Origin: a virus
Lineage: Duplodnaviria; Caudoviricetes
DNA length: 57,352 nt
Virus record (IMG/VR): IMGVR_UViG_3300030329_004815
Location: 1-57,352 of that record
Reading direction: 5' to 3' (one strand)
A program made the translations under genes and the position numbers. Of this stretch, positions 5,321-55,988 are shown piece by piece (positions within the stretch are counted from its first letter, which is position 1; every line of letters starts with the position of its first letter). Under the pieces are notes generated by a model that saw only the letters and a list, made by a program, of their open reading frames with translations, made no database searches and had not been told where the DNA came from.

Positions 5321-5629
5321 TTAGAGCAAACGGAACATTTCAAGCAAGCAGGGGTTGGACCGAAATACCGCAAGCTCGCCTTTTGTTCCTCTCAAAACGA
5401 AATCTTCTTCCGTACTGTCGTCACTCAGGTCCATTTGAGTGTTTATAGCGTGTTTTATTTCGTGCCAGAGTGTTTCAATCTGGTTTTGCATCGGCAGGTC
5501 CGAGCAGACGCAAATTAGCAGCCGATCATCACAGCAGAACCCGTCGTCGTCGTCCATTTCTGTTCTTGGCTTTAAAATTACCTCGTATTTGACGTGCAGC
5601 ACTTGAATATGGGACGGCCAGTTAATCAT
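5321..5629 (-). CDS. HExxH metallopeptidase-like protein
   Basis: ETLWHEIKHAI motif; start revised to the ATGA overlap at 5629. Confidence 0.65.
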   Translation of the reverse strand: MINWPSHIQVLHVKYEVILKPRTEMDDDDGFCCDDRLLICVCSDLPMQNQIETLWHEIKHAINTQMDLSDDSTEEDFVLRGTKGELAVFRSNPCLLEMFRLL

Positions 5630-6807
5630 TGAAAGCTTCGGGCAAGGTTTAAAGAGCATATCTTTCTATCTACCTCGCCGTAATCAGAATCCAAGACAAT
5701 TGAAGTCATGGACTGGGCTGAACCGTAGCCCTTGTCGGCGTGGTATTGATCTGGCGGAACTAGAGTGTTGAAAGCCTCAAAATGCACCCCGCCAATCTCG
5801 TCTCTGACCTTATGATGAATATGACCGGTCCAGCAATAGGTGAATTTTGCTTCCCCGTGTTCCTTGCGATAATCACGGGTTATTGCTTCATGAAGCCGCT
5901 TAAACCCCTTTTCTCCGTGATCCAGCGGCACAAAGTTACTTCCAAAGGAATAGTGCAGCATTTTAGTTTCGTTGCGAATAATGCTTACTCGCGGATTGTT
6001 GACAAAGTACGCTTCCAGAACGTAGTTGATCCAAAACGCCGCCGACGAATCGTGGTTGCCCCGGACGTTGTAAACCTCGACCTTGCTAAATTTTTCTAAT
6101 CCAACAAGCACGACATGCCGCATAAACTCTCCGGCAGCGCGAGCTACTTTTGGAAATCTGCCGTCATGATCTAGCTGGTTGCCGCTAGCCGGTGTCATAA
6201 ACGACGGGTCGTTGCAGTGAAGCAAATCGCCAAGATTGATAATTGCAATCGTCTCAGAGTTTGGCGAAGTCTCAATTAAATATTCGGCAGCCGATTTTAA
6301 ATCACGCAAGCCGATGTTGAGGTTGTGGTTTTCCCTGCCGGTTTCCGGCGCCCATGCAAACATCCCCAGATGGGCATCGCCAATTAACAAATTGGTTTTT
6401 AGCCGCGAAGTCTTTTTGCCCTTGGGTGCCTTTATTTTTTTGTAGGGCGTAACATCCTCGCAGACTGCCTCTACAAATGCTCTTATGCTGGCCTCAAGTT
6501 CTTCGGCGCTTCTCTTGGATTTTGTCCAAACTCTTTCTAGCTGACCGTCACCCGAATGTTGGTGCGTCATTCGCTCCACGAAATACCCACTGGGAGTTGG
6601 GTGAACCATGTCGTGGTCGGGTGAGTACCCGCGAGAGCAAGCGTAATCCTTCACACGCTGCGCCGTCTTGTTGACAGTAGTGTGGTGAAACCCCAGCGCC
6701 CTAGCGGCGGCGTGACGGGTTCCAAACTCCACTATAGCTTCCAAGACTCTTCGCTGGCTATCAGACCGGCAAAAACTCAAAAGCCCTTGAGCTTCGTCTT
6801 TTTTCAT
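5626..6807 (-). CDS. Calcineurin-like metallophosphoesterase with N-terminal HTH
   Basis: GDAHLG, NLGDLLH, GNHD, HGE and GHIHH motifs. Confidence 0.85.
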   Translation of the reverse strand: MKKDEAQGLLSFCRSDSQRRVLEAIVEFGTRHAAARALGFHHTTVNKTAQRVKDYACSRGYSPDHDMVHPTPSGYFVERMTHQHSGDGQLERVWTKSKRSAEELEASIRAFVEAVCEDVTPYKKIKAPKGKKTSRLKTNLLIGDAHLGMFAWAPETGRENHNLNIGLRDLKSAAEYLIETSPNSETIAIINLGDLLHCNDPSFMTPASGNQLDHDGRFPKVARAAGEFMRHVVLVGLEKFSKVEVYNVRGNHDSSAAFWINYVLEAYFVNNPRVSIIRNETKMLHYSFGSNFVPLDHGEKGFKRLHEAITRDYRKEHGEAKFTYCWTGHIHHKVRDEIGGVHFEAFNTLVPPDQYHADKGYGSAQSMTSIVLDSDYGEVDRKICSLNLARSFQ

Positions 6808-6820: not shown

Positions 6821-7645
6821 TTAAGTCATCGAACGACGGATGACCCATCTTAGAAAACACCGGCACATATAATGCGCCGGCGGACCTTCAAACTCCCCCC
6901 AATTTTCTTCGGTCGTCTCATGCAACGGGCTGCACACGGGGCAGACCAAAGCATCGTCTTGAGTCACCCATACAGGAATTATCTCTAACGCAATATCGTC
7001 AAGAATCGGCCTTTCCGGAATCCCTTCGTAGTCAATGCCATAAAGCCCTATTGAGTCTGGTCGATCCTCCAATATCTCTCTCGCCACAGGCGGCGTGCTT
7101 ACAAGCAGGGTTTGTATGTAAACTGCTGCAAGCATTTCGCCAGCCGTAATTGCAGAAGTAACAAGCCCCACTGCGATAATCATTGCTTTGTTTTCGGCAA
7201 AAATATCCTCGAACATTTCCGTAACAAAAACAGCCGTGTCTTCATCTTCGTCGGCGGACGGCACTGTTTCAGCAATGTTAGTCAAAACCATGTCGCTAAA
7301 GTTCACCGAGAACTGTTCGGCGCGGCGCTTGGCATCGCGCGAAACAGCCCGATTGTTCGCTGGAGTTGCAAGGCTTTCAAACGTCGGGCGCAGCATAATA
7401 TTAAGCGCGTCAGACATAACCAGAGCAATCACTGGCTGAACAGCAGACGCCAGCCGCTTCTTCATTGTCTCCCAAAAACCGCGAGAAGGAAGCTTGCCCG
7501 TGTTCTGATACACGGCAATTGCTGATTCCTTGTACTCCTCAAAAACTGGAAGCAAAGAATCCTCAATTGTTTTCTCTCGCTCTCTTCTCTGTGGATCGTC
7601 TGGCAATTTAAATCTCCTTTTGCCACTCGTCCAAAATCTCGACAA
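6821..7645 (-). CDS. MuF / SPP1 gp7-like head morphogenesis protein (no toxin extension)
   Basis: C-terminal WVTQDDALVCPVC...GPPAHYMCRC; downstream of the portal gene. Confidence 0.8.
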   Translation of the reverse strand: MSRFWTSGKRRFKLPDDPQRREREKTIEDSLLPVFEEYKESAIAVYQNTGKLPSRGFWETMKKRLASAVQPVIALVMSDALNIMLRPTFESLATPANNRAVSRDAKRRAEQFSVNFSDMVLTNIAETVPSADEDEDTAVFVTEMFEDIFAENKAMIIAVGLVTSAITAGEMLAAVYIQTLLVSTPPVAREILEDRPDSIGLYGIDYEGIPERPILDDIALEIIPVWVTQDDALVCPVCSPLHETTEENWGEFEGPPAHYMCRCFLRWVIRRSMT

Positions 7646-7832
7646 ATGCTTCGCCGATGTCTTGCCTCAATTTTCGTGCGGTATCAATAGACATGAATTT
7701 ATACTCTGTCCCGCCTTCCTTTGCCCTCATCTCTAACACAATCAATTTTACAGGCAAGCCGTCCTGTGTTGTGCTAGCAGGGTAGCAAAGAATGTTTTTA
7801 TGTAGCTCTCCTACCACCCGGTCTTCGCTCAT
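7608..7832 (-). CDS. Small hypothetical protein
   Basis: ATG at 7832; bridges and overlaps the portal and MuF genes. Confidence 0.45.
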   Translation of the reverse strand: MSEDRVVGELHKNILCYPASTTQDGLPVKLIVLEMRAKEGGTEYKFMSIDTARKLRQDIGEAFVEILDEWQKEI

Positions 7833-10572
7833 CGGGGCGAACCTTTCCTCGGACAATCTTGCCGGTCTTGCTGTTTTTCCATCCTTTGCCGCCGCGAGGC
7901 CCGGTCCAACTGGACCATTCACTTTCGCTTTCAGCCGCCTCCGGACTTTGGCTTAGGTTTCCTTGGCTTGGGGGGGCTGGGGTTGCTTTTTCCACGGACT
8001 GCCATGACTTGCCTTTCTTTGGTGAGCGAGATTTTTTAGCTGCGCGTTCTTCTGGGGTTGAATAAGTCAATGCACTAAGCCTGTTTACTTCAGCGTAATC
8101 GCCACGCTTAAACGCTGCTTCAATTTGTGCCTGTAGATCATCTGGGACGCTCTGTTTAGGTGCAGCGCCCTCTAGCGGGGGTGCAGTTTCAGCAGATGCA
8201 ACTGGTGCAGCGTCAGGTTTGGGCTGAGTAGCGGCAGGCGGTTTTTGTGTCGGCTGTGGAGCAGGCTGCGGGGCAGGTTGTTGTGCCTGCTGGGGTGAGG
8301 GCTGCTGCGTAGCTGGTGCTTGCTGACTCGATGGAGGCTGCTGGCCAGATGGTGCAGGTTGCGCGGCAGTAGGCTGCCCCGGCGCGCCAGCCTGTGCCGG
8401 GAACAGTATGTCCATATACTCTCCAGAACCTAGCTTTTGCTCTGCCACCCGCTTTGCTTCTTTTATTGCTGCGTCCATTTTCAAATCTAATTGCCGCTGG
8501 CTAGGCGGGTTTTTGCCAGTCACTAGCCTTTCAAACCCGTCTCCCAGATCGGCAAATGCCTGCGTGACCGCTCCGTCGCTCCACCCCGCCTGCGCGTCCT
8601 GCTGAATCCAGTTTAAAAATCGGCCAACCTTTGAGTTCATATATTGATTGGCTTCGCCTTCAGACATCCCGCCAGCCATTAATTTCTGCTTTTTCTGAGA
8701 CTCGAACTGCTGCTCCCTAGCTTCCTTCAAGCTTGAGGGCATTTGCTTGACAGCAGCTTCGGCCTCCTGCTTATATCGCTGCGTGTTCTTTTGTTTTGTA
8801 GTTTGCGCAGAGGACTGCTGAGGCGCCGCTCCCTGCTGGCCAGAAGCAGCACTAGGAGTCTTGCCTTTATGCTCGTCTGTTGCACAAGTGTTCCCCGGCG
8901 CAAATCCTTTGCCACCCGCACTCCCGGCGCCACAGGTGTCGTTTGCGCCTTTGGCCTTAAATTCGGAAATAAGGCTTGCAAGAGATTTTTGCAATCGCTC
9001 GTTTTCTGTTTCTTCTTCTGGCTGAGAAGCCATCATCGCATCCATAATTTGATCAAGCTCGGCCATTCGGCTGGCGCTGCCACCCTGCTGCTGCTCCTGT
9101 TCTTCCCCAAAAAATTCCGGCTCCGATGGCGATTCTTCGCCTTCTTCAGCCTGCTGCTCTTGCGAGCCAAAAAACTGAGGAGGGGGGTTCGGAACTGAAT
9201 CGGTTCCGTCCATCCCCATTGCTGCCGGAGTGCCACCTTCCATACCGGGCATGGCTTCGGGTGCGGGTGCTGCACCAGCAATTTCTTCGTCTCGCTCGTC
9301 GCCAAACAGTTGCATTCCCATTCGCAATCGCAACTCGCCCTTGGTGATAGCCCCGGCCTTCATCAAGATTTCGTGTTCGCGATTTCTTTGCTCCGGCTCG
9401 TCGATTGCTTTTGCGCGATACTCAACGTAATGCCCTTCGCCGTACTGCCAAACCCAGTTTTCATTGTCTTCGTCAGCAAACAAGTTCAGGATCGGCTGAA
9501 TTGTTAAGAAGATAAACTGCTTGAGCGGAGCGTACAAAGATTCGCCGCCGGTTGCCTGCTCGATCCCCGCCGCAGTTGGCGGAACCTTGTGAAGCGCCAT
9601 AATGGCATCACGCATCTGGCTAAACCCTTCGCCGTATGCCATGTCTCTGGCAGTGCTGGTCAAAGGCGTAACCGAAACACCATCACCGCTTGTAAACATA
9701 GCGCGACCAGCACGGTCGGTTCCGCAATACTTTTGGTTAAACCTAGCCTCAGCGCCTTTCAACTCTGCGGCATCCATCTGGCCAGCAATATGAACGTGGA
9801 CCGATGGATCAGGCCCAAGCCGCATGTGGTTGGTCCTTGAAGCGTCAATGTGGTTTGCTGAGTCGGTCCATAAGGCGCCAGCAGCAACCGACGACTGGCC
9901 ATCGTCTCTGTATACAGGGTGCGGGTCCAAGATGACCTGAACATGCCTAGCGTCTAGGTTCCAGTGAAGCTTGCTCATGTGCTGCCCAGCAAAGAACCAG
10001 CCCTGCTGACCGCCCTGCCGCGCAAGCTCAGGCTTGACCTTGTAGTAGCCTTCTGGGAAATCTTTGTTTGGCTGCTTTGGCTCTACAATTGCAGTTGGAA
10101 TAATGTACCTTCGAACAACCTTGCCGTAGGTGTTGGTCATGTTCCATATCAAAACCTTGCCGGTAAGTTTTAGCTGCAAGGCCATTTCAAATCGGAACGA
10201 CGATCCAGACTGCTGAGGGTTTGGTCTTTTTAGAAATTTCAAAAGAGGACTGTCTTTCGGGACGGGCCGCCCCTGATCGTCCTTGTCGTTGTACATCGAC
10301 TTCATTACCGAGCCGACAGCCTCCTCCTCCGTGTAAGCATAGCAAGCAGCTTGACCGCACTGCGTAGCAATCGCATGGATAGCAACGTAGTTCCAGCCGG
10401 TGTACATTTCCACTTCTTTGCGGTGGTCACTTGAATATCCACCGCCCGACTGCTGGAGGCTTTGCTCTAGCTGGTAATCATTGCTAACCTTGAAGTCGGC
10501 TGGCACCCTGCTTCGCGAGGCATTCTTATCACTTGCAGCCATCGCTTTGATAATTTCGGCTTGTGTTGGCAT
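7798..10572 (-). CDS. Portal protein with a long low-complexity C-terminal extension
   Basis: FLKRPNPQQSG, LKLTGKVLIW, IMALHKVPP and GAITKGELR HK97-portal motifs in about the first 430 aa. The E/Q/P-rich tail contains CGAGSAGGKGFAPGNTCA. Confidence 0.88.
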   Translation of the reverse strand: MPTQAEIIKAMAASDKNASRSRVPADFKVSNDYQLEQSLQQSGGGYSSDHRKEVEMYTGWNYVAIHAIATQCGQAACYAYTEEEAVGSVMKSMYNDKDDQGRPVPKDSPLLKFLKRPNPQQSGSSFRFEMALQLKLTGKVLIWNMTNTYGKVVRRYIIPTAIVEPKQPNKDFPEGYYKVKPELARQGGQQGWFFAGQHMSKLHWNLDARHVQVILDPHPVYRDDGQSSVAAGALWTDSANHIDASRTNHMRLGPDPSVHVHIAGQMDAAELKGAEARFNQKYCGTDRAGRAMFTSGDGVSVTPLTSTARDMAYGEGFSQMRDAIMALHKVPPTAAGIEQATGGESLYAPLKQFIFLTIQPILNLFADEDNENWVWQYGEGHYVEYRAKAIDEPEQRNREHEILMKAGAITKGELRLRMGMQLFGDERDEEIAGAAPAPEAMPGMEGGTPAAMGMDGTDSVPNPPPQFFGSQEQQAEEGEESPSEPEFFGEEQEQQQGGSASRMAELDQIMDAMMASQPEEETENERLQKSLASLISEFKAKGANDTCGAGSAGGKGFAPGNTCATDEHKGKTPSAASGQQGAAPQQSSAQTTKQKNTQRYKQEAEAAVKQMPSSLKEAREQQFESQKKQKLMAGGMSEGEANQYMNSKVGRFLNWIQQDAQAGWSDGAVTQAFADLGDGFERLVTGKNPPSQRQLDLKMDAAIKEAKRVAEQKLGSGEYMDILFPAQAGAPGQPTAAQPAPSGQQPPSSQQAPATQQPSPQQAQQPAPQPAPQPTQKPPAATQPKPDAAPVASAETAPPLEGAAPKQSVPDDLQAQIEAAFKRGDYAEVNRLSALTYSTPEERAAKKSRSPKKGKSWQSVEKATPAPPSQGNLSQSPEAAESESEWSSWTGPRGGKGWKNSKTGKIVRGKVRPDERRPGGRRAT

Positions 10573-43247: not shown

Positions 43248-43514
43248 GTGATAACACGCAAGACAGCAATGATGCTGAGGGTTATTAGCAATCACACATC
43301 GTCAAAGTCACCAATCGAATCTGCCGAGCTTATGTTCATGGTTGGGGAGAAGTACCCGAATATAAGACAGCCGAACGCATACCAGATTCTCAAGCGATCT
43401 ATTGAGTCTGGTTATGTAAACAAAGAGCCGAACCCCCACGGACCCGGCTCTGTCTACAGCCTTACGCCTAAAGGCAAAAAGGCATTTGACGATTTCATGG
43501 CTGATTTTAAGTAG
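43248..43514 (+). CDS. PadR/MarR-like winged-helix protein
   Basis: AYQILKR....GYV........SVYSLTPKGKKAF. Confidence 0.7.
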   Translation: MITRKTAMMLRVISNHTSSKSPIESAELMFMVGEKYPNIRQPNAYQILKRSIESGYVNKEPNPHGPGSVYSLTPKGKKAFDDFMADFK

Positions 43515-45177: not shown

Positions 45178-45615
45178 TTAATCGCCCGGCATTAAATTAA
45201 ATATGTGATCTGCGACATGCTCAACGCAGGCTTCCTGAGCGCTTTCGGGAATATACATAAACTCCCTCGCTGGGATGTTCTCTGTGCCGTCGTTGTTCCA
45301 AGGAGCATACTCCAAATCCGTTCCCACGCTAACACTTCTTTGTGACACATCTCCCCCAGACGAATCCCCGGTAAGCTGGTCGTAAAGAGTACCGCTCAGA
45401 ATAAGAAGCGGGTGCGCCCCGTGAAGGGCGATTGTAACATCACTGTGATCTTCCCATCGCTCGCCAACTGACGACTGCTGATTAGCAAAAATCTCAACAA
45501 AACCCTGCCGCAACTCTGCCGAACACTCAGACAAGGGCGCTTCATAGCTGCCCTCGGCAATGTCTTTAAGAAATTCGCCTATAAGGTCTACTGCCTCAGC
45601 AAGACTAACCTTCAT
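45178..45615 (-). CDS. Virion morphogenesis / tail completion protein (Mu gpG-like)
   Basis: F..Q....G.RW...L.LSGTL...VGTDLEYA..NN.GT.NIPAREFM. Confidence 0.8.
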   Translation of the reverse strand: MKVSLAEAVDLIGEFLKDIAEGSYEAPLSECSAELRQGFVEIFANQQSSVGERWEDHSDVTIALHGAHPLLILSGTLYDQLTGDSSGGDVSQRSVSVGTDLEYAPWNNDGTENIPAREFMYIPESAQEACVEHVADHIFNLMPGD

Positions 45616-45826
45616 TTTGCTCCTCGTCTGTAGCGATTATCCCGTTTGCATCCAGACGTGGCGGATTAACGGATGGTTGGTACAACGGCGTAATTGAGCT
45701 TTCCATTTTCTCAATGGCTGCGTCAACACGGCTTGAGTCTTTTTTAGCGCTGTTTAACGAGGCTATTGCAGCCTTGCGAACTCGATCCGCCAGCGGGCTA
45801 GTTTGTTGTGAAGATTCGCGATCCAA
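45605..45826 (-). CDS. Small protein overlapping the end of the zeta-like module
   Basis: TTG at 45826, 6 nt behind GAGGAG; 73 aa. Confidence 0.5.
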   Translation of the reverse strand: MDRESSQQTSPLADRVRKAAIASLNSAKKDSSRVDAAIEKMESSITPLYQPSVNPPRLDANGIIATDEEQNEG

Positions 45827-48356
45827 TTGTAGCTCCTCTTTTAATGTGTTCGGGTGCGTCACTGTCAAGCACGGCGTTTACAGCCTGCCTGTACAATTGC
45901 TTAATGTCAGGAATGTCTTCCTTGGGAATTTGGTCAATCGACTTGGTTTCATCACTTCGATTGTCAAGAATTATAAAATCAGCACGATCTTTGTGCTGAT
46001 TCATGAACTTTTCAAAGTTAATTGCGCCGACGTTGTATGACTCCGCAAACAACCTAGCGTCTACCATTCGGCCCTTCTTCTTTGCACGCTCAATTGCCCC
46101 TCGCTTTGGATTGGTCCAGTTTTCTAAGGGGTCAGCATGAACAAAGACATACGTTCCTTTAATGCCACGCTTATCAAGCTCGCCTTGAATCCACGGCATT
46201 TCAGTTCCGTTCTGCTCGCCTGCACTGTCCCACACCGCGCCAAATTCATCTGCTACGTCGTTAAACTCGTTGCCGGTTGCATAGCCCTTGCCGGCAGCAA
46301 CCCCGCCCTGAGTAATTAAGACATTTCGCTGAGACTCAGGCAGGCTGGCCATTGCGTCTAACTGCTTGAGGAACGCTTTTTTTGCAATTGCGTTTGCGGT
46401 TTGGTGAACAGGAATGTTGTACTTTGCTCGATTTTCAGGGCTGGCTGCGTAGTCACCGCTCAACATTTTAGCGTCGTCAGTGCTGAAAGTCTTGTGAGCC
46501 AACGGTTTGTCAGGGTCGACCTCTCGACTTACCACCATGTCAAAGTAAGCGTCAGTAGCTCCTTCGGGATCAGCCTCGAAATGCTCTGCAAATGACCGCT
46601 CAGCCGCCGATTCGTCTGCGGTCAGGTTCGGCATGCGGGGAATTTGATCTGGCGGAGGAGGCACCATGTCAGCCGGAAGCCCTACCCTTGCAGCGTCCGT
46701 GATGCCGTCGTTGTTGGGATCGTCCTGCGGATTGACAATATGGGGGTTTTCGACCTCTAAAACGGCCTCATTGTTGAGATTTTGGATAAAAACCATAGCG
46801 TAATCGCTGTATTCGCCCTCAGAGGCCGTTAGAGGCTCGTTTTCGTCAGGCGACTCTGTAGGCGAATCTGGCGTTTTATCGCCTTTACGGGCCTCTGGAG
46901 AGCCTGAATTGCCCGAACCTCGCTTTTGGCAGGTATTGCCCTCAGAGAAGCCCTCACCGCCGGGGCTTCCTGCCCCACATGGGTCAGATTTGAACACCGA
47001 CATCCACAGAGTTTCGTAAAGGGGAAGGGATTTAGACTTCTGCACGCTCTGCCAGTAAATTGCTTCAGACTCTGCAACGACATCCATAAAGTGTTTTGTG
47101 TAATGCGATTTCAAAATAATTTCGGCATCGTTAATTTTCTTGTCAACTTCGCCGCTCCAAAGTTCCTCGTAATCGCGATTTCCAACAACGTAAGTAGCAG
47201 ACCCGCCCCTGTCATACATAGCACCTTTAAGTTCGGGGAAAACGGCGCCCAGCTTTTTTACCAATCGTTTGTATAAGGTTTTTCGAGAAGGCTCGGCTGC
47301 TGTAAAAGTGTAAACGTCAGCAGGCGCTTCTTGGTGCTTTGAAGCAATTGCACCTATTACTTTTGAAAATACTTCATGCGCACTTCCGGTCCCCTTAATT
47401 CCGTAGTCGCCATCTTGGTCAAACATAATGGTGCGATGTGTTCTGCCTTGCTGCGCCGACCGGTCGTATGTAGTAATCGTGTACGGCGTACCGGCTTCGG
47501 TTTCAAAACGCAAAACAAAATCGCCGTCTTTGTCCTTACCCCATTTGTTTAAGCCTAGCTCGCCGACGTTTTTAGTGTTTACAAACCCGTCACCATCCGG
47601 GTTTTCTATGTAAGTGCTTTCAAAACGATCAACAAAAAACTCTTGGACTCGATATTGGTCGTAGCGCATGTAATCGCGCTCCATTTCACTCCAGCCTTCC
47701 CACCACTCTTTTCTGGCTTCGCGGTTTTTTTCGTCTACTTCTTCATAGGCAGCGTCCAAGTAAGGTTGTTCTAGTTCAAAAAATGCCTGTTCATCGTTTT
47801 CCATCATTTCATCTATATCTATGCCATCCGCAACCATTCCTTGATGGGCCGTTTGATACACGTATTCCATTTGTTCGTCAGGCGACATCTTCCACTCGTC
47901 TTCATGCTCGTCGGCGATGTACTCAAGTTCTTCCAGCGAGTAATCAATATACTCATCGTACTCCTGCTGTTCGCTACTGCTTAAATCGTCATAGTCATAT
48001 ATTACATCTTCAGGGTCATAAACATCTTCGTCTGTAACGGGAAAGTTTTTAGCGTTTTCCAAAACTTCTTCGCGGAACAACTCCTTGCTGCTTTTCTTTT
48101 TCTTTTTGCCATCTTTATCCGCAGCGCAATCGTTGCCGAGTTGGAACCCTCCACCGCCGGGAGCGTTGGCTCCGCAATCGTCGTCAGCTTTAAATACAGA
48201 CAGCCAGAGAGATTCGTGACAGGGAAGGGATTTTTCCTCTACAAAAGCTGCATCGCTTGAGGAATTTGTTTTTTCCAAATTTAGTTCGCCAATAAAGTCC
48301 AAGTTCCTGCCCGGAGCAAGAACGGCAATTAGCTCTTTGCTTATTTCATTTTGCAT
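45798..48356 (-). CDS. Polyvalent protein 3: acidic region + conserved phage domain + zeta-toxin-like P-loop kinase
   Basis: Two tag copies; ITQGGVAAGKG, VWDS and YVFVHADP...AIERA...GRMV motifs. Confidence 0.75.
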   Translation of the reverse strand: MQNEISKELIAVLAPGRNLDFIGELNLEKTNSSSDAAFVEEKSLPCHESLWLSVFKADDDCGANAPGGGGFQLGNDCAADKDGKKKKKSSKELFREEVLENAKNFPVTDEDVYDPEDVIYDYDDLSSSEQQEYDEYIDYSLEELEYIADEHEDEWKMSPDEQMEYVYQTAHQGMVADGIDIDEMMENDEQAFFELEQPYLDAAYEEVDEKNREARKEWWEGWSEMERDYMRYDQYRVQEFFVDRFESTYIENPDGDGFVNTKNVGELGLNKWGKDKDGDFVLRFETEAGTPYTITTYDRSAQQGRTHRTIMFDQDGDYGIKGTGSAHEVFSKVIGAIASKHQEAPADVYTFTAAEPSRKTLYKRLVKKLGAVFPELKGAMYDRGGSATYVVGNRDYEELWSGEVDKKINDAEIILKSHYTKHFMDVVAESEAIYWQSVQKSKSLPLYETLWMSVFKSDPCGAGSPGGEGFSEGNTCQKRGSGNSGSPEARKGDKTPDSPTESPDENEPLTASEGEYSDYAMVFIQNLNNEAVLEVENPHIVNPQDDPNNDGITDAARVGLPADMVPPPPDQIPRMPNLTADESAAERSFAEHFEADPEGATDAYFDMVVSREVDPDKPLAHKTFSTDDAKMLSGDYAASPENRAKYNIPVHQTANAIAKKAFLKQLDAMASLPESQRNVLITQGGVAAGKGYATGNEFNDVADEFGAVWDSAGEQNGTEMPWIQGELDKRGIKGTYVFVHADPLENWTNPKRGAIERAKKKGRMVDARLFAESYNVGAINFEKFMNQHKDRADFIILDNRSDETKSIDQIPKEDIPDIKQLYRQAVNAVLDSDAPEHIKRGATIGSRIFTTN

Positions 48357-50019
48357 TTGCTTTGCTCTTTCGGGTTAGCTTTGTTTTTTTGTATTCTATA
48401 TCAACGCCAATAGAATTTGCCCACGACGTAAACACCTCATTAACCGAGTGATAGTGAAGTTGATTGGCCTGTTTTACGTATTCTTTTAAATCTTTCTTTG
48501 TCACGCCGCTAGTCTGAGCATACTTTGTTATGTTGGCCTTTTGCCTGTCGTATACAAAAGAATCAATTCTGTTAATTTGGTTAAACGCTATGTGCTGGGC
48601 TATGCTTTCTTCGGCAACGCTTCCAGATTTTATCGCCTCCTCTGCACTTACTTTTTCCCCGTCAACATCAACAAAAAAATTATTAAAAATCTCCGGGCTT
48701 GATTTTTTAAACCCGTCTATCAGCTTTTTGCTTACGCCCTGCGGGTACGTCATCTCATAATTATTGGACTTAGTAGTCGCAATAACCTTCCTCTGCCCAC
48801 GAGCAATTCCGAACACAACGTCAGAGGGTGATAAGGATGCTTCGCTAGGGTGGTTGTGAACCATTACAGTCCCTTTGGGGATGTCGTAGCCATCTTTTAA
48901 AAAGTCTACTTGGTCTTTCTCGTAGGTGCTTTTCTCCTCGCCAACGATTTTTCCCTCTTCGTCAAAAAAAGCAGCCCTCTCGTAAGTAAGGTCGCGTATG
49001 GCTTCCGTGTATTCACTTTGATTGCTCAAGCTCTTGAAGTATTTCTCAACATCCGACTTCTCCTTTTTGTTCCGTGGCATGAGGCGATGGCGAGAAGGTT
49101 TTTTTACCCTGCCCGAATCTTTTAAATTTTTGCCATCCTTATCAGATGCACAATCATTCCCCGGCTGAAATCCGCCACCGCCGGGAGCGTTAGCACCGCA
49201 ATCACTTTTGGGGCCGTCGTCGCTCTTGAATACTGACAGCCAAAGCGTTTCGTGTGGAGGCAGGCAGGCTACGCCATTCGCTTGGCTATTCTTGCTTTTA
49301 GATCGCGAAGCTCTTGTCGGTCGGGCTTTCGCCCCTGCATAGCCTTGAACAAGTTGATCGCCGTCTTTTCGATTTCGGCGGCGTCCCATGATTTTGGCTT
49401 TACTAAAGTGTGGTTGGCTTTTGTTGTTTTGCTCATCTTCCCACTTCTTCCTTTCTTCAGGTGTTAAGGTAACTATTTCTTCAAAACTGCCTAAGTCAAA
49501 AATTTTAAGCTGGCCATTGTCTTTAGCTAGCTGAACAGCTTCTTCTTGGTCGTCCAATACAACGGCAAGGTCGAAATACACCTTGTCGTCTCCATCAGTG
49601 TTTTCGTCCGTCTTTTTGTTGTACCACGCTCCAATGTGTACTCTTTCGTCGGACTGCAATATGTCCAAGTTGTTAATGATGTAATCGGCAATTGCTTCTG
49701 GCGTGGCTTCGGAAAGTTCCATGATCTCCTCCCTTTCGGGGAAGATGGATACAGAAAATCCGCTGTCAGGAGATGAATCGTCAGCAGGGCGGTATGTGTA
49801 TCCACCTGACTGTTCGATCTTTTTTGATAATGTATCTGGTGTTTCGTTTCTGCCAGCAGCGCAATCATTCCCCGGCTGGAATCCTCCACCGCCGGGAGCG
49901 TTCGCTCCGCAGTTGTCTTTTGATTTTGAAACGCTTGTCGATTTTTTTTGTATTGCGTCGTCCGTCAAAGCCACGTTGACTAAAACAAACTCTCCAAATT
50001 CTTCTCGTTGCCTACTCAT
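48346..50019 (-). CDS. Polyvalent protein 2: unknown (SAM-lyase-like?) domain + JAB/MPN-like domain
   Basis: Two tag copies; YERAAFFD...VHNHPSEASLSPSD. Confidence 0.7.
   Translation of the reverse strand: MSRQREEFGEFVLVNVALTDDAIQKKSTSVSKSKDNCGANAPGGGGFQPGNDCAAGRNETPDTLSKKIEQSGGYTYRPADDSSPDSGFSVSIFPEREEIMELSEATPEAIADYIINNLDILQSDERVHIGAWYNKKTDENTDGDDKVYFDLAVVLDDQEEAVQLAKDNGQLKIFDLGSFEEIVTLTPEERKKWEDEQNNKSQPHFSKAKIMGRRRNRKDGDQLVQGYAGAKARPTRASRSKSKNSQANGVACLPPHETLWLSVFKSDDGPKSDCGANAPGGGGFQPGNDCASDKDGKNLKDSGRVKKPSRHRLMPRNKKEKSDVEKYFKSLSNQSEYTEAIRDLTYERAAFFDEEGKIVGEEKSTYEKDQVDFLKDGYDIPKGTVMVHNHPSEASLSPSDVVFGIARGQRKVIATTKSNNYEMTYPQGVSKKLIDGFKKSSPEIFNNFFVDVDGEKVSAEEAIKSGSVAEESIAQHIAFNQINRIDSFVYDRQKANITKYAQTSGVTKKDLKEYVKQANQLHYHSVNEVFTSWANSIGVDIEYKKTKLTRKSKANAK
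49269..49436 (-). CDS. Nested alternate-frame ORF (55 aa)
   Basis: MSKTTKANHTLVKPKSWDAAEIEKTAINLFKAMQGRKPDRQELRDLKARIAKRMA; purine-rich upstream sequence. Confidence 0.45.
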   Translation of the reverse strand: MSKTTKANHTLVKPKSWDAAEIEKTAINLFKAMQGRKPDRQELRDLKARIAKRMA

Positions 50020-53000
50020 CTATGACATCCATTTCTACAACCAGTCGAGCAACACCATCGACATTGTAAAGGTTTTTGTCAGTAATCCTGAGTTGAGTGT
50101 GGGGAGCCAAAACAACTTCTTCTTCCCCGTCATGTTTGGTGTTTGGCTCCATCCACAACCCCTTCTTTGTGTTTATTTTCAAAAGGATTCCGGGTGATTT
50201 GTCATCCATGTGACCGTTTGAAATGCGAGTTCTTATAGATGTAGACCCAAATCCATCTAACTGGAATTTGTCATCTCCGCTAATAATCTCGTCATAGATT
50301 CTTTTTGTTGCAATGCTGTCTACTGTGATGCCTCGATAAACACGAACAGATTTTTTGTCTTCTCGCAAATAACCTATTGAAGATTTGAGTTTTTCGATTA
50401 GCGCCTTGTCTTTGGCTCGGTGCGCAGGAATAAGTTCCTTTATTTTCGATGCCGTTTCAGAAGATGGTCTTATTGACATGCCAATATCGTCTGAAAATGT
50501 TGCCCTTAATCTTTCTGCTGTGCTTGTTATAGATTCTAAGTGTTCGTCTTTGTACCATTCGTCTGCGCTTGAATCTGGATAGTCTCCCCACTCGTCTGGT
50601 TCAAAGCCAACTGCAATATCCCTCGCGTGTCTAATTTCTTTTAATATCGTACTTTCATGATTCAAATCTTTCATCAAAGACCGACCCAGAGATTGTGCTG
50701 TTGATATGTGATCGTTGTACGATGTCAAATTTGACATGTCTATTTCAGCAAATTTAAGCGCTTTTTGAAGCCGAGCATTTTCCGCACTAATCCTGCCTGC
50801 GATTGTTCTGGCTTTTGACAAAAACTTATGAGGGTCAGATTCAGATTTAGCCAGTTCAGACATTCTTTTTAATTCTTTTTGTTTTGTGTCAAGGTATTCT
50901 TGACCAGCTTCCTTTATCTTTTGGGCATCATAAGACTCGCCTGATCTGACCATTCCGTTTATACGTCTTGCTGATGATCCACCTGTGTAATCTCTGATGG
51001 CGGCAATTTGTTCTTCAGTTAAATCTTGGTTTTCCCTCGCTGTCGTAAGTTCTTCAGCAAGTGGCGAATTTGCGTCTAAGTCTTCTTCGTATCTTTCATA
51101 GCGCATATCTGGGTGTTCATCTACACGATATCCATCAGAATTTACAGTGATAGAAGTACCTTCGTATTTGTTGCCATCTGGGTCTTCGCCGTACAGCCAG
51201 AAGCCTGTCCAATTTGTATCTGGGTCAAAAGCCCTTCTTGCTCTTATTACATCGTCTTCCCAAATGCGAAATTTTTCCCGCTCATCAATAGAAGGCTTGC
51301 CGGTCCTCCTGTCCGTTGTTCTTCCTTCTGCTGCCCCACCATCTTTATCTTTTGCAGCGCAATCATTACCCGGCTGGAAGCCTCCGCCGCCGGGAGCGTT
51401 GGCTCCGCAATCGCTCTTGGGTTTGTCGGCGGATTTGGTGCGGTATATTTCTGAAAGAACAGGTTTTGCAGCCTCCGTGAGGCCGCTGCCTTCATCCCAC
51501 CCTTCGTAAAACCCTGACCTGCCAGAATTTGCTTGAACTTCCGTGTCCTCAAAACTGCCTTCGGTGTAATCCTGACCACGATCTAACACTTTTATTCCCG
51601 TTATAGCCAAGGAAGTGCTAGGGTTTATTGTTATCTCTTTTTCGCGATCCCCGTATTTGGGGTTCATGTTTGCGTCAATAGTTTTTTGCCAGTCTACGTC
51701 GTCAGAGGGAACGCTTGCGCGAAGCATTACTGTCATTTGCTCTGATCTTCCCATAGCTGGTCGGGCGCGATCCATATCCCTTGACCAGTATTCGCCAACA
51801 TCATCTAAGTTTAATTTTTGAAGTGCCTCCTCTTTTGTTGAAGCATCAATTCTAATTGATCTGTAAGCTGGGATTGGGTATTTACGCGATTCTAAATCAG
51901 AAATTAAATTGCGAAATTTTTGCCTAGAACGATTTTGTTTTTGTTCTACGGCTAATTCTGCTGCTTTCTGCTTTAACGCAGCTATATTTTTTTTGCTATT
52001 CGCCCCTTCTGCCATTAGCTTGTTTCTGTAATCTGGGTCTTTGTGCCATCGTTCTTTATCTGCTTCCGCAAGCATTTTGCTGCGACGATCTATAAATTCC
52101 TGCTTTACCTGCTCATAAGCTTCTTCGTACTCGCTAGAGGCTTCAATAGGCTCTCCGGTGTCCCAAGAGTCTTTATAATTATCTTCGTGAAACTCAGATA
52201 AATCAGGCACTTTGCCGTCACCACTATCCGCAGCGCAATCATTACCCGGTTGAAATCCCCCGCCGCCGGGAGCGTTAGCGCCGCAGTTGTCTTTTGATTT
52301 GTAGATGCTGGGGTTGTCTGGGTCAAAGGTTCCCTCGTTATCAACAGACTTAATTTGCTTTGGGTCAAAAACAATTACTTCTTCCCAATCCTTCGGACTG
52401 CTTGATCCTTCGGCGGCAATGATTATCCCGTCATGCCCAAGACCCTTTGCAATATCCGCGAGATATGGGTCGGTGATACCACCGTAGGTGTAGTAATACG
52501 GGTTCTTCATGCGAACATACGCTGGATAGACAGTACCTTTCTTTTTTCTGGATTCATAAAATAGCCTTGATGCTTCGCGGTCCATTTCTTGGGCTACGTC
52601 ATAAACCTCTTGTGTAATCTTGCCTGCTCTCAAATCCAAGCGCATATACATATCACCTCGTCCACCGTTTTCTTTAAGGTACTCATCCAGCTTTTCGTTG
52701 GCTTCTTTGGAAGCCGAGTCAGACCGACCAATCGCTTCGCTTGCGTAGGTTTCAGCAAGACCCTCGTCTGGAGTGAAATAAACCCCTTCTCCCCAATCTG
52801 ACCGCTGCACTGTTCCTGCGCGAGAAACATCAAACTCCTCAATGTTTTCTGCCGCGCTGCCATGATACAACACAAGCGGCTCGCCGTTTTCATCGACTAC
52901 TTTTGAATCGCCGAACCACTCGTCGAACGCTTTAGTTCTTTTCCCCGAAGCAGGCTCATCACCGCCACCGTCTTTATCCGCAGCGCAGTCATTCCCCGGT

Positions 53001-54952
53001 TGGAATCCGCCACCGCCGGGAGCGTTGGCTCCGCAATCGCTTTTGGGGCTGTCGGCGGATTTGTGGATGCTAGGGTCGTCGGTCGGGTTCTCGTTGCCAA
53101 CAGCCATTTTAATTTGAGATGGATTAAATACGGCAATCTCCCAAGCGTCTTGTATTTTATTGGATTTGCCACGGGTTCTAAAGATTGAATCAGCATTATG
53201 TGGAGCTGAACTGATCGGGTCTTCTTTCTGTATTGGGCTAGTCGCCCTTAGATAAAATGGTATTGGCGTTCCGTACTTTTTCGCCACATTTATATCTGGA
53301 GAAAAATACGCTCCGGCTTCCATTCCACCTTCTGTATCAAAGACATCAAACCCAATATCCCAAACAATTTTCCCGTCTTTTATCTCTTTAATTTTGGGGT
53401 CTTTTACGCCGTGATAAACAACCAGCGGATCGCCGTTTTCGTCAACTACCTTTGAGTCGCCAAACCACTCGTCGAACGCTTTAGTTCTTTTACCTGACGC
53501 AGACTCATCACCATCTTTGTCCGCAGCACAGTCATTCCCCGGTTGAAATCCTCCACCGCCGGGAGCGTTGGCTCCGCAATCGTCGTCAGCTTTGAATACT
53601 GACAGCCAGAGAGATTCGTGGCAGGGAAGGGATTTAGAATCTTGCTCGGCTTGTGTTGAGCTAGATTCTCGTTTTTTAATAAAAGCCTCAATGTCGGACC
53701 GGCGACCTCCCGATGTTTCGTAATTGTCCGCTGCGCTGTCGTACATAGACTGGATTTTTACTTTATCAAACGATGGCATTTTCTTTTTGTTGTAAACGCT
53801 GTAGCCTTCCGGTTTTCCGACCACAATAGACTTGGGGTTCAGCACTAAAAGCTCTTTTTCACTATTGCCTTTCCAGTCGCCGATTTTTACAGCGTCAACG
53901 CCTTTGTCCCACAACGACTCGATGTGGTCTTCAACGTCTGCTGCATCAGTAAAACTGGGCATGTCAATAACTTTCGCTCCTTTTTTGAGCAAAACGGGGG
54001 CAACCGAGCCAGAGTCAGAACTGCCAGTAAAATTGGACGCTATGTCCCGGTCCTTAGAAAGCGAAACACCCCAATATTTTTCCCCATACCCTCCGCCAGA
54101 AATGTAGTCCCCCTCTTTCATTGACACGCTGGGGCGAAGATTGCTAATCGACCCGCCAGTGCCGTGATAAAAAAGATGGTCCTCCAAGTCATCGGCGTTT
54201 TTATATTTCGCAATCTCAGCATTGAACAGCCGCTCGCTTTTATCAGCACCGCCCGCTTTTTTAAGATACTTAATAATTTTTTCTTTCGTGTGACCGCCTC
54301 TCGGCTTCGGAAGATCGCGACGAGTATCCCAGTTAGCCCCAATTTTCATAGCTTCGATTTTGGTCTTTTTTTTCGCTAACTCAGTGTATTTATCAACAGT
54401 CGGCTTTACCGACATCTCAGACATTATCTTTTCTTTTTGCTTCTTGTTATATTCTGCCGCTTCTTGCTTTTGCTTTTTCAGGCCCGCCGAGTTTATTTTT
54501 TCGACAACCGGGTGCATCGCATTAGCGGCTATACCCCTAATCTTAATGTTTGCTCTTTCTTCTGCTGGATTGTCGGAGGGTTTTCGACCGACAGTGTCGC
54601 GCTGTAGCTTGCGCATCCTGTCCACATACTCTTGGTCGGTTTCCCCCTCGTTCCGCGCAGTTAATTTGTGTGCTAGTTCCTTCCCTTTAGCTAGAAGCAG
54701 GTCGTATTCGTCTTCATTCCTCAGGATGTCGGGGTCATAGTCCGGGTGTCCGGGGGAAGTGTTGAGTTTTACAAACGCATCTCGAAAATCGTCCGCAACG
54801 CTTTGCTCACCACCATCTTTATCCGCAGCACAGTCGTTACCCGGTTGGAATCCGCCAGAACCCGGCCCCGGCCCCCCGGTTGCGCCACAATCGCTCTTAG
54901 GGCCGTCGGCTTTAAAAACCGACTGCCAAAGCAGTTCGTGTTTCGGAAGCAT
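50012..54952 (-). CDS. Polyvalent protein 1 with five ADP-ribosyltransferase-like modules
   Basis: Start revised to the TGATG overlap at 54952 (1646 aa). Three YHG-type modules (two with SKVVDENGxPLVxYHG), one YR..YWS..EKE module and one VYRG..STS..EEE module. Confidence 0.8.
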   Translation of the reverse strand: MLPKHELLWQSVFKADGPKSDCGATGGPGPGSGGFQPGNDCAADKDGGEQSVADDFRDAFVKLNTSPGHPDYDPDILRNEDEYDLLLAKGKELAHKLTARNEGETDQEYVDRMRKLQRDTVGRKPSDNPAEERANIKIRGIAANAMHPVVEKINSAGLKKQKQEAAEYNKKQKEKIMSEMSVKPTVDKYTELAKKKTKIEAMKIGANWDTRRDLPKPRGGHTKEKIIKYLKKAGGADKSERLFNAEIAKYKNADDLEDHLFYHGTGGSISNLRPSVSMKEGDYISGGGYGEKYWGVSLSKDRDIASNFTGSSDSGSVAPVLLKKGAKVIDMPSFTDAADVEDHIESLWDKGVDAVKIGDWKGNSEKELLVLNPKSIVVGKPEGYSVYNKKKMPSFDKVKIQSMYDSAADNYETSGGRRSDIEAFIKKRESSSTQAEQDSKSLPCHESLWLSVFKADDDCGANAPGGGGFQPGNDCAADKDGDESASGKRTKAFDEWFGDSKVVDENGDPLVVYHGVKDPKIKEIKDGKIVWDIGFDVFDTEGGMEAGAYFSPDINVAKKYGTPIPFYLRATSPIQKEDPISSAPHNADSIFRTRGKSNKIQDAWEIAVFNPSQIKMAVGNENPTDDPSIHKSADSPKSDCGANAPGGGGFQPGNDCAADKDGGGDEPASGKRTKAFDEWFGDSKVVDENGEPLVLYHGSAAENIEEFDVSRAGTVQRSDWGEGVYFTPDEGLAETYASEAIGRSDSASKEANEKLDEYLKENGGRGDMYMRLDLRAGKITQEVYDVAQEMDREASRLFYESRKKKGTVYPAYVRMKNPYYYTYGGITDPYLADIAKGLGHDGIIIAAEGSSSPKDWEEVIVFDPKQIKSVDNEGTFDPDNPSIYKSKDNCGANAPGGGGFQPGNDCAADSGDGKVPDLSEFHEDNYKDSWDTGEPIEASSEYEEAYEQVKQEFIDRRSKMLAEADKERWHKDPDYRNKLMAEGANSKKNIAALKQKAAELAVEQKQNRSRQKFRNLISDLESRKYPIPAYRSIRIDASTKEEALQKLNLDDVGEYWSRDMDRARPAMGRSEQMTVMLRASVPSDDVDWQKTIDANMNPKYGDREKEITINPSTSLAITGIKVLDRGQDYTEGSFEDTEVQANSGRSGFYEGWDEGSGLTEAAKPVLSEIYRTKSADKPKSDCGANAPGGGGFQPGNDCAAKDKDGGAAEGRTTDRRTGKPSIDEREKFRIWEDDVIRARRAFDPDTNWTGFWLYGEDPDGNKYEGTSITVNSDGYRVDEHPDMRYERYEEDLDANSPLAEELTTARENQDLTEEQIAAIRDYTGGSSARRINGMVRSGESYDAQKIKEAGQEYLDTKQKELKRMSELAKSESDPHKFLSKARTIAGRISAENARLQKALKFAEIDMSNLTSYNDHISTAQSLGRSLMKDLNHESTILKEIRHARDIAVGFEPDEWGDYPDSSADEWYKDEHLESITSTAERLRATFSDDIGMSIRPSSETASKIKELIPAHRAKDKALIEKLKSSIGYLREDKKSVRVYRGITVDSIATKRIYDEIISGDDKFQLDGFGSTSIRTRISNGHMDDKSPGILLKINTKKGLWMEPNTKHDGEEEVVLAPHTQLRITDKNLYNVDGVARLVVEMDVIDE

Positions 54953-55284
54953 CACTTGCCTTTCGTGCAAAAAAGCCTGTGCCTCTGGCCCAAAAGCTCT
55001 TCGATTGTGTGTTTTACAATCCACGTTGTAGACTCGTCGTCTACAATTTTGTCGCCAGATTTTGGAGTCGTTGTTATAGAGCTGTCCCAAATATGCCAAA
55101 CGATGTCAGCACCAGACAAAAACCCTTGAATGGATGCCATTTCTTTTGCTGTGATTGGACGCTTTTCAGCATTAGTCACTGACTGGCCAGTAGCAAAAGT
55201 CCCGCCGCTTCGCGGATAGTATGTCACCGCTTTGGGGTCAGGCATAGAGTTTGCGTAGCTTGCTATTTCTTCAGGCGTAATCAT
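54952..55284 (-). CDS. Putative head closure / stopper protein
   Basis: 110 aa, PKSGDKIVD...WIV motif; follows the adaptor. Confidence 0.6.
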   Translation of the reverse strand: MITPEEIASYANSMPDPKAVTYYPRSGGTFATGQSVTNAEKRPITAKEMASIQGFLSGADIVWHIWDSSITTTPKSGDKIVDDESTTWIVKHTIEELLGQRHRLFCTKGK

Positions 55285-55988
55285 TAGAAGCTCGGTCGTT
55301 TGTATCTGTTGATAACTCTGGTGGCTGAATCTAGTCGAGCCATGGCTTCGGCACTTTGCGCGTACTGCACGTTAAAGTAGTCCAAAGAAACGCCGCTAAT
55401 TGGCATTCCGCCAGCAGCACTTTTCCGAGTCATAGCAACAATGTTGCAAATAGCCATTTTGATATCGACAGGGATGCTTGAGTATCCGGCGTTGTAAATG
55501 ACTTTTATATTTCCCCGCCGGTTCATTTCTAAATGCGATACTTCCGTTTGACCGGCAATTCGCTTGTTAGGCCACCTAGCACCGATTCTTTGTACAATTC
55601 CGCTAAAGCTCGTGGAACCGTTTAAGGCATCAAGTGCGTAATCCTCGCCTTTCGTCAATAAAGTCGAGGATGGGAAGGGGTCGGCTGAGGCTCCGTATCT
55701 CCCGTCCGCATCCTCGTGAATTGAGGTGATTGAGTTGACCGGGTACTCTCGCAAAACTAAGTCGAATTCACCGCTGCCGTCAAAATAGTGCGTGTAAGTA
55801 GCGGCTACAAATTTTCGCCCTGTTTCTCGCTCAAAAATTTCTTCAGCCTGAAGCCCCATTTGCGTTAATTTGGTGTCTTCGCCGGAACCTGAGATTCCCA
55901 GTTGAGTTTTGATATACGACAAAGAAGCGTAGGTTAAAGAACCTGCGCTTACTGCCGACATTGCTGTGGTAGAAGGAGAGTAGCCCAT
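55284..55988 (-). CDS. Head-tail adaptor (HK97 gp6 / SPP1 gp15-like)
   Basis: IKTQLGI...DTKL...ERETGRKF...YPVNSITSI...YNAGYSSIPVDIKMAI. Confidence 0.85.
   Translation of the reverse strand: MGYSPSTTAMSAVSAGSLTYASLSYIKTQLGISGSGEDTKLTQMGLQAEEIFERETGRKFVAATYTHYFDGSGEFDLVLREYPVNSITSIHEDADGRYGASADPFPSSTLLTKGEDYALDALNGSTSFSGIVQRIGARWPNKRIAGQTEVSHLEMNRRGNIKVIYNAGYSSIPVDIKMAICNIVAMTRKSAAGGMPISGVSLDYFNVQYAQSAEAMARLDSATRVINRYKRPSF

Follow-up and report, generated by a model that had tools for sequence, protein, structure and literature searches.

Introduction

How does a tailed phage send enzymes of its own into the host, and what marks them for the passage? Injected phage proteins and their route into and out of the head are known for a few model phages only. 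The question is raised by a locus in a 57,352-nucleotide virus genome (Duplodnaviria; Caudoviricetes; IMG/VR record IMGVR_UViG_3300030329_004815, positions 1 to 57,352), a complete virus record with direct terminal repeats, which is called the window below. Three large open reading frames (ORFs) of its structural gene block, A, B and C, carry nine modules, each preceded by a Gly-rich motif bounded by two cysteines, the tag.

The present study suggests that an HK97-like phage makes A, B and C late, as polyvalent effector polyproteins which would be packaged, cut by protease at the junctions between modules and ejected; we hold this with somewhat better than even confidence. We infer packaging, cleavage, ejection and a role for the tag from the anatomy of the locus, its conservation and distribution, the sharing of a motif with head proteins, and the gene context. 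A tag together with a likely head-protease site before the modules suggests mix-and-match loading of injected enzymes into phage heads.

Results

Nine modules in three proteins follow a common junction

The three ORFs lie on the minus strand:

50012..54952, minus strand: polyvalent protein A, 1646 amino acids (aa) from ATG, five tag-preceded modules
48346..50019, minus strand: polyvalent protein B, 557 aa, two tag-preceded modules
45798..48356, minus strand: polyvalent protein C, 852 aa, two tag-preceded modules

A six-frame regular-expression scan confirmed what a sequence-only reading of the window had reported, namely three large ORFs, nine tags, five copies of a leader peptide and modules ending in K-S (SIHKS, SIYKS, YRTKS, QDSKS and VQKSKS, all present). 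The start ATG of A overlaps the stop of an upstream 110-aa ORF (TGATG), and the starts of B and C fall within the final codons of the preceding ORF; these overlaps fit translational coupling of A, B and C.

By their predicted domains, A, B and C are polyvalent effector proteins, a class already described (Iyer 2017, PMC5512222): several unrelated effector domains, including the signature ART-PolyVal (ART, ADP-ribosyltransferase), are joined in one polypeptide, with nine modules in total. ART-PolyVal was found in modules A2 (E 1.4e-13) and A3 (E 7e-22), with a weak, sub-threshold match in A1, and the C-terminal module A5 matches ADPrib_exo_Tox/ART (30.5 bits against a cut-off of 23.4); the remaining module of A, A4, has no domain assignment. 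Pfam gave no match for B or C and NCBIfam nothing significant, while a phmmer search of the PDB with modules B2 and C2 gave no useful match. B2 is possibly a RadC/JAB-like peptidase, judging from HNHPS...SPSD read by eye; the best NCBIfam match of B, RadC at E 0.045, is not significant. C2 has a P-loop-like GGVAAGKG motif, also read by eye, C1 is acidic, and B1 has a stand-alone homologue (P0010).

The nine cargo tags, and a tenth in the portal ORF brought out by a six-frame scan and a profile search of the genome, are located as follows:

54830..54889, minus strand: tag 1, the 20-aa variant CGATGGPGPGSGGFQPGNDC, A aa 21-40
53528..53578, minus strand: tag 2, CGANAPGGGGFQPGNDC, A aa 459
52985..53035, minus strand: tag 3, CGANAPGGGGFQPGNDC, A aa 640
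52235..52285, minus strand: tag 4, CGANAPGGGGFQPGNDC, A aa 890
51359..51409, minus strand: tag 5, CGANAPGGGGFQPGNDC, A aa 1182
49861..49911, minus strand: tag 6, CGANAPGGGGFQPGNDC, B aa 37
49150..49200, minus strand: tag 7, CGANAPGGGGFQPGNDC, B aa 274
48126..48176, minus strand: tag 8, CGANAPGGGGFQLGNDC, one substitution (P to L), C aa 61
46929..46979, minus strand: tag 9, the divergent CGAGSPGGEGFSEGNTC, C aa 460
8884..8934, minus strand: tag 10, CGAGSAGGKGFAPGNTC, portal aa 547-563

The same 17-mer, CGANAPGGGGFQPGNDC, is thus repeated in six of the nine cargo tags. The DNA of these six copies varies at 10 positions, all of them third codon positions, with 3-8 pairwise differences per 51 nucleotides. 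Such synonymous-only differences argue that the tag is kept by selection on the protein and reflects neither chance nor recent DNA duplication; an origin as a DNA-level repeat or recent duplication was rejected on this ground.

Five junctions also carry a 13-aa leader, always of the form LPxxExLWxSVFK:

54911..54949, minus strand: leader 1, LPKHELLWQSVFK, A aa 2, at the N-terminus of A
53591..53629, minus strand: leader 2, LPCHESLWLSVFK, A aa 442
49225..49263, minus strand: leader 3, LPPHETLWLSVFK, B aa 253
48189..48227, minus strand: leader 4, LPCHESLWLSVFK, C aa 44
46989..47027, minus strand: leader 5, LPLYETLWMSVFK, C aa 444

The junction can accordingly be described as a putative cassette of three parts: a site S-[V/I]-x-K/[S/A] (the slash before the bracket marks the predicted bond, as in the sites below), in five cases within the leader; the Cys-x15-Cys Gly-rich tag; and a short acidic or Gly linker. 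The tag of the portal is preceded by SLISEFK/A and followed by a Q/P/A-rich extension of about 360 aa. This extension (7801-8883, minus strand) is of low complexity and ends in a basic tail after a further SVEK/A site, and it has the look of a passenger carried by the portal and devoid of enzyme domains.

The junction motif recurs in the head proteins

The motif S-[VI]-x-K-[SA] lies within 2-9 residues upstream of eight of the nine cargo tags; the ninth junction reads YRTK/S. The Ser or Ala behind the predicted bond falls at aa 15, 455, 632 and 886 of A, aa 33 and 266 of B, and aa 57, 441 and 457 of C. Defined from the cargo alone, S[VI]xK[SA] occurs six times in the portal, the protease-scaffold and the major capsid protein (MCP) against 0.17 expected (portal 88 and 859; protease-scaffold 90, 182 and 335; MCP 32), so that A, B and C share the predicted cleavage motif of capsid, scaffold and portal. 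When the three head proteins were shuffled, none of 20,000 trials reached six and the maximum was three. The proteins and their predicted sites are:

7798..10572, minus strand: Phage_portal protein, 924 aa (Phage_portal 1e-27, covering aa 84-418); predicted sites from the motif scan SVMK/S 88-92, SEFK/A 536-540 and SVEK/A 859-863
4110..5276, minus strand: prohead protease-scaffold fusion, 388 aa (phrog_80 E 8.3e-6); predicted sites from the motif scan SIVK/S 90-94, SIRK/S 182-186 (end of the protease domain) and SIAK/S 335-339
2839..4110, minus strand: MCP of the HK97 fold, 423 aa (Phage_capsid 2.7e-36); predicted N-terminal sites from motif scan and alignment SIVK/S 32-36, SEFK/S 76-80 and a conserved K110/A twelve residues before GGFMV

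The sites are placed as expected of protease substrates, in the N-terminal part of the MCP, at the border between protease and coiled-coil scaffold, and in the portal. Those of the MCP precede the Pfam capsid domain, which starts at aa 123. Related MCPs conserve xFK[SG]FGDFL, and in 9 of 11 examined K-A precedes GGF[LM]V by 9-12 residues. Where the protease domain ends, I-x-K-S-L is likewise conserved across lineages.

The N-terminal ~180 aa of the protease-scaffold are protease-like. Its phmmer homologues include 200-aa proteins, and 5 of 11 aligned members match Peptidase_S78 (best 9.7e-9), which makes the product of 4110-5276, by homology, a probable protease of the HK97 gp4 (S78) kind. In the alignment H71 is invariant and S127 nearly so; these two are presumably the catalytic residues. 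Searches of the PDB with this protease gave nothing useful by phmmer and nothing by profile. The S78-type protease of HK97 cuts the capsid protein at K103/S104, according to the text available of PMC10275583.

These observations support in silico the suggestion of the sequence-only reading that the K-[S/A] junctions are prohead-protease sites: the cargo motif recurs only in the portal, the protease-scaffold and the MCP, the protease is probably of the S78 kind, and the HK97 enzyme cuts a Lys-Ser bond. We regard the cargo junctions as predicted prohead-protease cleavage sites, well supported in silico and unproven.

Two further counts point the same way. A wider motif, S[VIE]xK[SA], has 17 matches, every one of them in the set made up of portal, protease-scaffold, MCP and A to C (5,618 aa scanned); the remaining ORFs, 12,698 aa in all, have none. 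The Glu at position two adds SEFK/S in the MCP (aa 76-80) and SEFK/A directly before the portal tag. In other lineages K[SA] stands within 8 residues upstream of 117 of 283 tags, whereas randomly chosen positions of these proteins give 25.3 +/- 4.7; a composition rich in Lys and Ser could account for part of this excess.

Several points weigh against cleavage of this kind. The Glu of the wider motif was added after the MCP and the portal had been inspected. The YRTK/S junction does not fit the motif, and the leader in B lacks a preceding K-S. The window's own protease has no Pfam match to S78. Elsewhere only 41% of tags have K[SA] close upstream, and the region before the tag is rich in Lys and Ser anyway. 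Leader and tag are separable, P0004 and the close relative L001 carrying leaders without tags. Furthermore, a lineage with a Mu-type portal (L022 type) has three-tag ART proteins, and no S78 protease was found in it; comparison of a neighbouring 442-aa protein with the protease alignment by hhalign showed no homology (probability 0.4%). Since this lineage has multi-tag proteins without a detected S78 protease, the tag itself cannot depend on S78 cleavage.

The MCP of the L022 type has 340 aa and starts directly at MAEVAPG. In this lineage a protein of 430-460 aa (L022:15938-17263 and 14 relatives, alignment A5) is encoded with the tagged ORFs on one side and the cement and capsid genes on the other. 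Its N-terminal ~190 aa are very conserved, with many invariant His, Ser and Asp residues; an acidic stretch and then a coiled-coil-like tail come after them. PHROG gave no match for the protein, and Pfam sub-threshold matches only (E 0.011-0.054). This protein could be an unrecognised protease-scaffold.

The tag precedes putative cargo modules in many other phages

A 49-aa query of leader and tag found the tag in 10 proteins among 16 candidates, including one built as portal-tag-domain-tag-domain (P0008), one as MuF-like-tag-domain (P0009) and two that begin with the tag (P0010 and P0011). A profile (A1) was built from 16 sequences, among which nine positions do not vary (C G A G G F G N C). 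It retrieved 232 of 1.84 billion cluster representatives at E<=1e-3 (51 at <=1e-10), many with 2-7 tags. The tag peptide pattern fits 123 stretches of viral contigs, of which confirmation left 63; 55 loci were retrieved. The idea that the tag is unique to this phage was rejected by this wide distribution in profile and pattern searches.

Among 95 distinct contexts, 67 have the Cys-x15-Cys spacing and 26 a shorter one, Cys-x12-Cys, of the form CGTGAGGFQPGN[DT]C; both variants occur in one protein of L057. Downstream of the tag comes a linker rich in Gly, Asp, Glu and Ser, and the domain after the last tag has a median of 271 aa. In 64 of 136 proteins the N-terminus is no more than 60 aa away from the first tag; the regular expression behind this count left out the short variant (17 of 153 proteins). 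According to Pfam, 85 tagged proteins of at most 800 aa include ART-PolyVal (12), ADPrib_exo_Tox (5), Phage_Mu_F (3), two each of InPase, Topoisom_I, Zeta_toxin, 2'-5' RNA ligase (2H), ATLF and GNAT, and also NUDIX, RadC, RelA_SpoT, Acb1, PI3/PI4 kinase and portal.

An independently recognised head or neck gene stands in the fetched flank of 44 of the 55 viral loci (the other 11 being L003, L015, L016, L017, L026, L030, L031, L040, L042, L054 and L055). Fusions of five tag-modules with the portal are seen in L005, L007 and L008, and in the L022 group a Mu-type portal is followed by two to four tagged ORFs. In these searches the tag stands upstream of many effector domains and beside head genes. 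The view of the sequence-only reading that the device is independent of MuF holds for this phage only: A, B and C have no N-terminal Phage_Mu_F domain of the kind that defines MuF polymorphic toxins, and elsewhere the tag directly follows MuF and portal domains (Phage_Mu_F is present in 3 of the 85 other tagged proteins). As read from these sequences, the tag is a widespread 'pre-effector' motif at the N-terminal border of putative cargo, behind a portal, behind MuF or free-standing.

Genome contigs yielded six tag loci only, three of them from Planctomycetota. A prophage in a metagenome-assembled genome of Pirellulaceae (L057, on a 400 kb contig) has a portal 42% identical to that of the window. 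In this prophage, a relative of the window phage, the tagged cargo ORF is flanked by the portal and a MuF-like gene, and Neck1 comes directly after the adaptor; this different gene order indicates that the cargo block has moved within the structural module between relatives. A second prophage (L061) is in a cultured planctomycete, Singulisphaera acidiphila DSM 18658 (NC_019892.1, ~5.219 Mb), a possible experimental system; there an ORF of 926-936 aa beside a terminase-like gene, built as portal-tag-cargo, has a short tag at about aa 553, then about 370 aa. In the genomes of the Pirellulaceae bacterium and S. acidiphila the tag is confined to prophage ORFs, and a sample of 301 genomes from the phylum gave it once, in the seed itself. 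The occurrence of the tag in cellular proteins was rejected on these data, the two genomes having it in prophage ORFs only and the other 300 sampled genomes giving no hit.

The proposal that the tag is not a described family also withstood our searches. Pfam and NCBIfam gave no match covering the tag in the tagged proteins, and the tag profile had no PDB match at E<=10. The peptide strings were not found in the open literature searched, which comprised neither supplements nor subscription journals. A tblastn search of the tag against 50,697 GenBank phages returned no match or noise at E>=3, in a search whose low-complexity filter may hide Gly-rich matches.

What the tag does may be considered from these features. 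It could be a retained N-terminal handle, a disulfide or metal loop, one partner of a tag-tag pairing (the portal being tagged as well) or a self-processing junction; our guess is a small disulfide- or metal-stabilised loop acting in loading or ejection. A broader reading is that the tag is a universal cis-acting head signal of tailed phages, either a portable loading or ejection signal for any enzyme or a self-acting junction that frees the modules; in this reading it would be common to phages with unrelated portals and head-assembly schemes. We offer this as a tentative possibility, to which we give distinctly less than even weight.

Modules are exchanged between close relatives

In contrast to the tag, which is common to lineages with different portals and MCPs, the leader is bound to one lineage. 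It was found only in the window, L001, P0004, P0005 and P0099, with a weak look-alike in P0009, and a widespread leader was therefore rejected. Such confinement is as expected if the peptide and its own protease or scaffold evolve together.

The close relative L001 (MCP 922 bits over 423 aa, protease 89% identical) carries at the same place a single 2399-aa ORF, which has only two modules in common with the window (A2, 98%, and C1, 90%). P0004 matches C without a difference as far as ...YWQSVQKS, after which come other modules that carry leaders and no tags. This breakpoint, exactly after ...YWQSVQKS, indicates that the junctions are also recombination points, and the later modules of P0004 show that leader and tag can be separated. 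In P0005 a 96-aa stretch is identical to the start of C. These module swaps between near-identical phages support the 'plug-and-play' payload envisaged in the sequence-only reading.

Some modules of P0004 (aa 555-757) and of L001 have a leader (LPHHEKLWNSVFK/A) and no tag. P0004 as a whole matches DUF5824, and in L041:11229-12629 DUF5824 stands beside Phage_Mu_F as well. Residues 1-36 of B (49912-50019, minus strand; ..VALTDDAIQKKSTSVSKSKDN) match the C-terminal tail of an internal module in the 2399-aa ORF of L001. From this match the start of B appears to lie within what remains of a lost module, and the three-ORF state of the window is probably a recent rearrangement of one long ORF.

Recombination at the tags and junctions between relatives is also what would be seen if A, B and C were packaged and injected intact, as was first envisaged for polyvalent proteins, and the tag, the leader and the K-S stretches were flexible, recombination-prone linkers for cassette shuffling. 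The virion RNA polymerase of phage N4, which has an MPTase domain, is packaged unprocessed (Iyer et al. 2017, in the portion of PMC5512222 available to us), and multi-tag proteins also occur in the lineage where no S78 protease was detected. However, a mere linker would not keep nine invariant columns across 16 sequences, extend over 232 clusters and vary in a purely synonymous manner. Nor would it explain why the junction motif recurs only in the N-terminal domain of the MCP, the protease-scaffold and the portal. We therefore consider intact cargo unlikely, and prefer protease-cut cargo.

Gene order around the cargo locus

On the minus strand the order is portal, MuF-like ORF, exonuclease, protease-scaffold, MCP, several unassigned ORFs, head-tail adaptor, 110-aa ORF, A-B-C, Neck1 and tail tube. 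This order places A, B and C among virion or late genes of a complete phage genome, with the head-tail adaptor on one side and Neck1 on the other. The genes not listed so far are:

6821..7645, minus strand: MuF-like minor head protein, weak candidate, 274 aa (phrog_24918 E 1.4e-4; Phage_Mu_F E 0.24)
5626..6807, minus strand: exonuclease of the calcineurin-like DNA-repair type (phrog_704 E 2e-85)
55284..55988, minus strand: head-tail adaptor (phrog_442 E 4e-25)
54952-55284, minus strand: 110-aa ORF, no family match
45178..45615, minus strand: Neck1 or tail-completion protein (phrog_26 E 4.6e-11)
43507-44445, minus strand: tail tube (family searches of window ORFs)

The sequence-only reading had placed the cargo between head-stopper and tail-completion genes. 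The tail-completion side is borne out by the phrog_26 match, while the ORF called 'head-stopper' (the 110-aa ORF) is the one that matches no family. As to its statement that the MuF protein here carries no toxin, 5626-6807 is an exonuclease, and the sole MuF-like candidate, 6821-7645, has no extra domain and a weak match. The exonuclease lies within the head block, with the MuF-like ORF on one side and the protease on the other, and has the same position in L001.

A single gene spans the ends of the record (3-440 and 55990-57351, minus strand). It has a tandem unit of about 30 aa, GDSTAADNLE.MYDGTGY.GGT.KL.VD, then repeats of the form IQTDLSNGTDGLGALKALIDTVD, and a weak tail-protein match (phrog_788, E 1e-4); it may encode a fibre or decoration protein. 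No cultured close relative was found among GenBank phages, MCP identity being below 35%. A planctomycete or a related bacterium is a possible host.

Discussion

Within one phage, a motif derived from cargo singles out exactly the classical protease substrates. In our proposal the polyproteins would enter the procapsid, where the S78-type prohead protease would cut after Lys in the cargo, as predicted for the N-terminal domain of the MCP, its own scaffold part and the portal. About nine separate modules would be freed, each with its tag 2-9 residues from a new Ser or Ala N-terminus, and would be ejected with the DNA. The leader may in addition target the cargo to the capsid, as the sequence-only reading suggested.

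The tag itself might instead be reactive. Its invariant Cys, Gly, Asn and Cys are residues typical of autoprocessing sites, and a Cys...G-N-x-Cys arrangement could support Asn/Cys-driven cleavage, cyclisation or cross-linking, with release or tethering at the tag and not at the upstream Lys. The presence of the tag in lineages with different head-assembly machinery, and of both variants in one L057 protein, would be in keeping with such an activity. However, inteins and Hint domains have a fold of at least ~130 aa with a terminal Asn directly before Cys, Ser or Thr, whereas the tag has 14-20 aa, far too few for that fold, and its Asn and second Cys are one residue apart instead of adjacent; nor did the PDB and family searches return a match for it. 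A self-processing tag thus appears quite improbable to us. That A, B and C are no virion cargo at all, being late cytoplasmic enzymes or neck- or fibre-associated proteins within the structural gene block, we regard as very improbable: the genes of the window do lie between adaptor and Neck1 and not beside the portal, but homologous tag-modules are fused to the portal C-terminus and to MuF domains in other phages, which argues for placement inside the head, and injected polyvalent proteins have ART-PolyVal as a signature domain (Iyer 2017, text available of PMC5512222).

A 17-residue motif marks cargo modules in hundreds of uncultured phage proteins, and the modules so marked include ADP-ribosyltransferase, NUDIX, 2H phosphoesterase, Acb1-like, RelA/SpoT, zeta-like and topoisomerase IB domains. 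If the proposal is borne out, injected enzymes of anti-defence and take-over could be sought by a sequence rule, and the capsid maturation protease of an HK97-like phage would be seen to dissect effector polyproteins. The compact cassette of tag and site could then be tried for loading foreign proteins into phage heads. If the tag were a universal head signal, the injected 'effectorome' of uncultured phages could be read directly from sequence.

Several systems resemble the one proposed here. The polyvalent proteins (Iyer, Burroughs, Anand, de Souza, Aravind 2017, PMC5512222) are likewise giant, multi-domain proteins with ART-PolyVal and other effectors encoded among virion genes, sometimes fused to portal or MuF and predicted to be injected with the DNA. 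In contrast to our proposal, the same report ascribes processing to built-in peptidases (MPTase). In the text available of PMC5512222, as distinct from its supplements, which possibly hold domain tables, the Cys/Gly tag and a prohead-protease junction motif are not described, and cysteine, linker and glycine are not mentioned.

In phage T4, a short N-terminal peptide targets the internal proteins and Alt, cargo that includes an ADP-ribosyltransferase, into the prohead and is removed by gp21, and the cargo is injected (as described in the accessible text of PMC9026906). T4 has one propeptide per protein, whereas here we find multi-module polyproteins with repeated junctions, predicted K/S or K/A sites and an extra tag that would be retained. 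Cleavage by the T4 prohead protease follows a Glu-type motif. SPN3US and phiKZ also have one cleavage motif common to capsid, portal, protease and ejection proteins, with propeptides cut at several sites (text available of PMC10052503). Unlike the phage studied here, these are jumbo myoviruses with a T4-gp21-like protease and separate substrates with long propeptides, and have no concatenated effector modules and no Cys/Gly tag.

MuF polymorphic toxins similarly join a head-protein anchor to variable toxin cassettes (Jamet et al. 2017, PMC5576092; Zhang et al. 2012, PMC3482391, both as far as their texts were available), and the idea of 'pre-toxin domains' as possible processing sites is already in the latter. 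Unlike these toxins, A, B and C have no MuF domain, although the tag does follow MuF in other metagenomic phages. The portion of Jamet et al. (PMC5576092) available to us has no mention of linker, cysteine, glycine, cleavage, motif or junction. A phage effector polyprotein cut by the prohead protease as ejection cargo was not found in the open literature searched.

The closest likeness on the side of the protease is HK97 gp4 (Peptidase_S78) acting on gp5, the same family by homology with a Lys-Ser/Ala bond at the equivalent place of the MCP (text available of PMC10275583). Unlike in HK97, the same specificity appears, by prediction, to be used here to dissect effector polyproteins. To our knowledge, no cargo substrates are known in HK97.

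Thus, the polyvalent class, head-packaged injected enzymes, a cleavage motif common to capsid, portal, protease and ejection proteins, and the idea of pre-toxin processing are already known. What appears to be new is the Cys/Gly tag as a general N-terminal marker of cargo modules, the in silico case for an HK97-type protease that dissects effector polyproteins, and the modular junction cassette.

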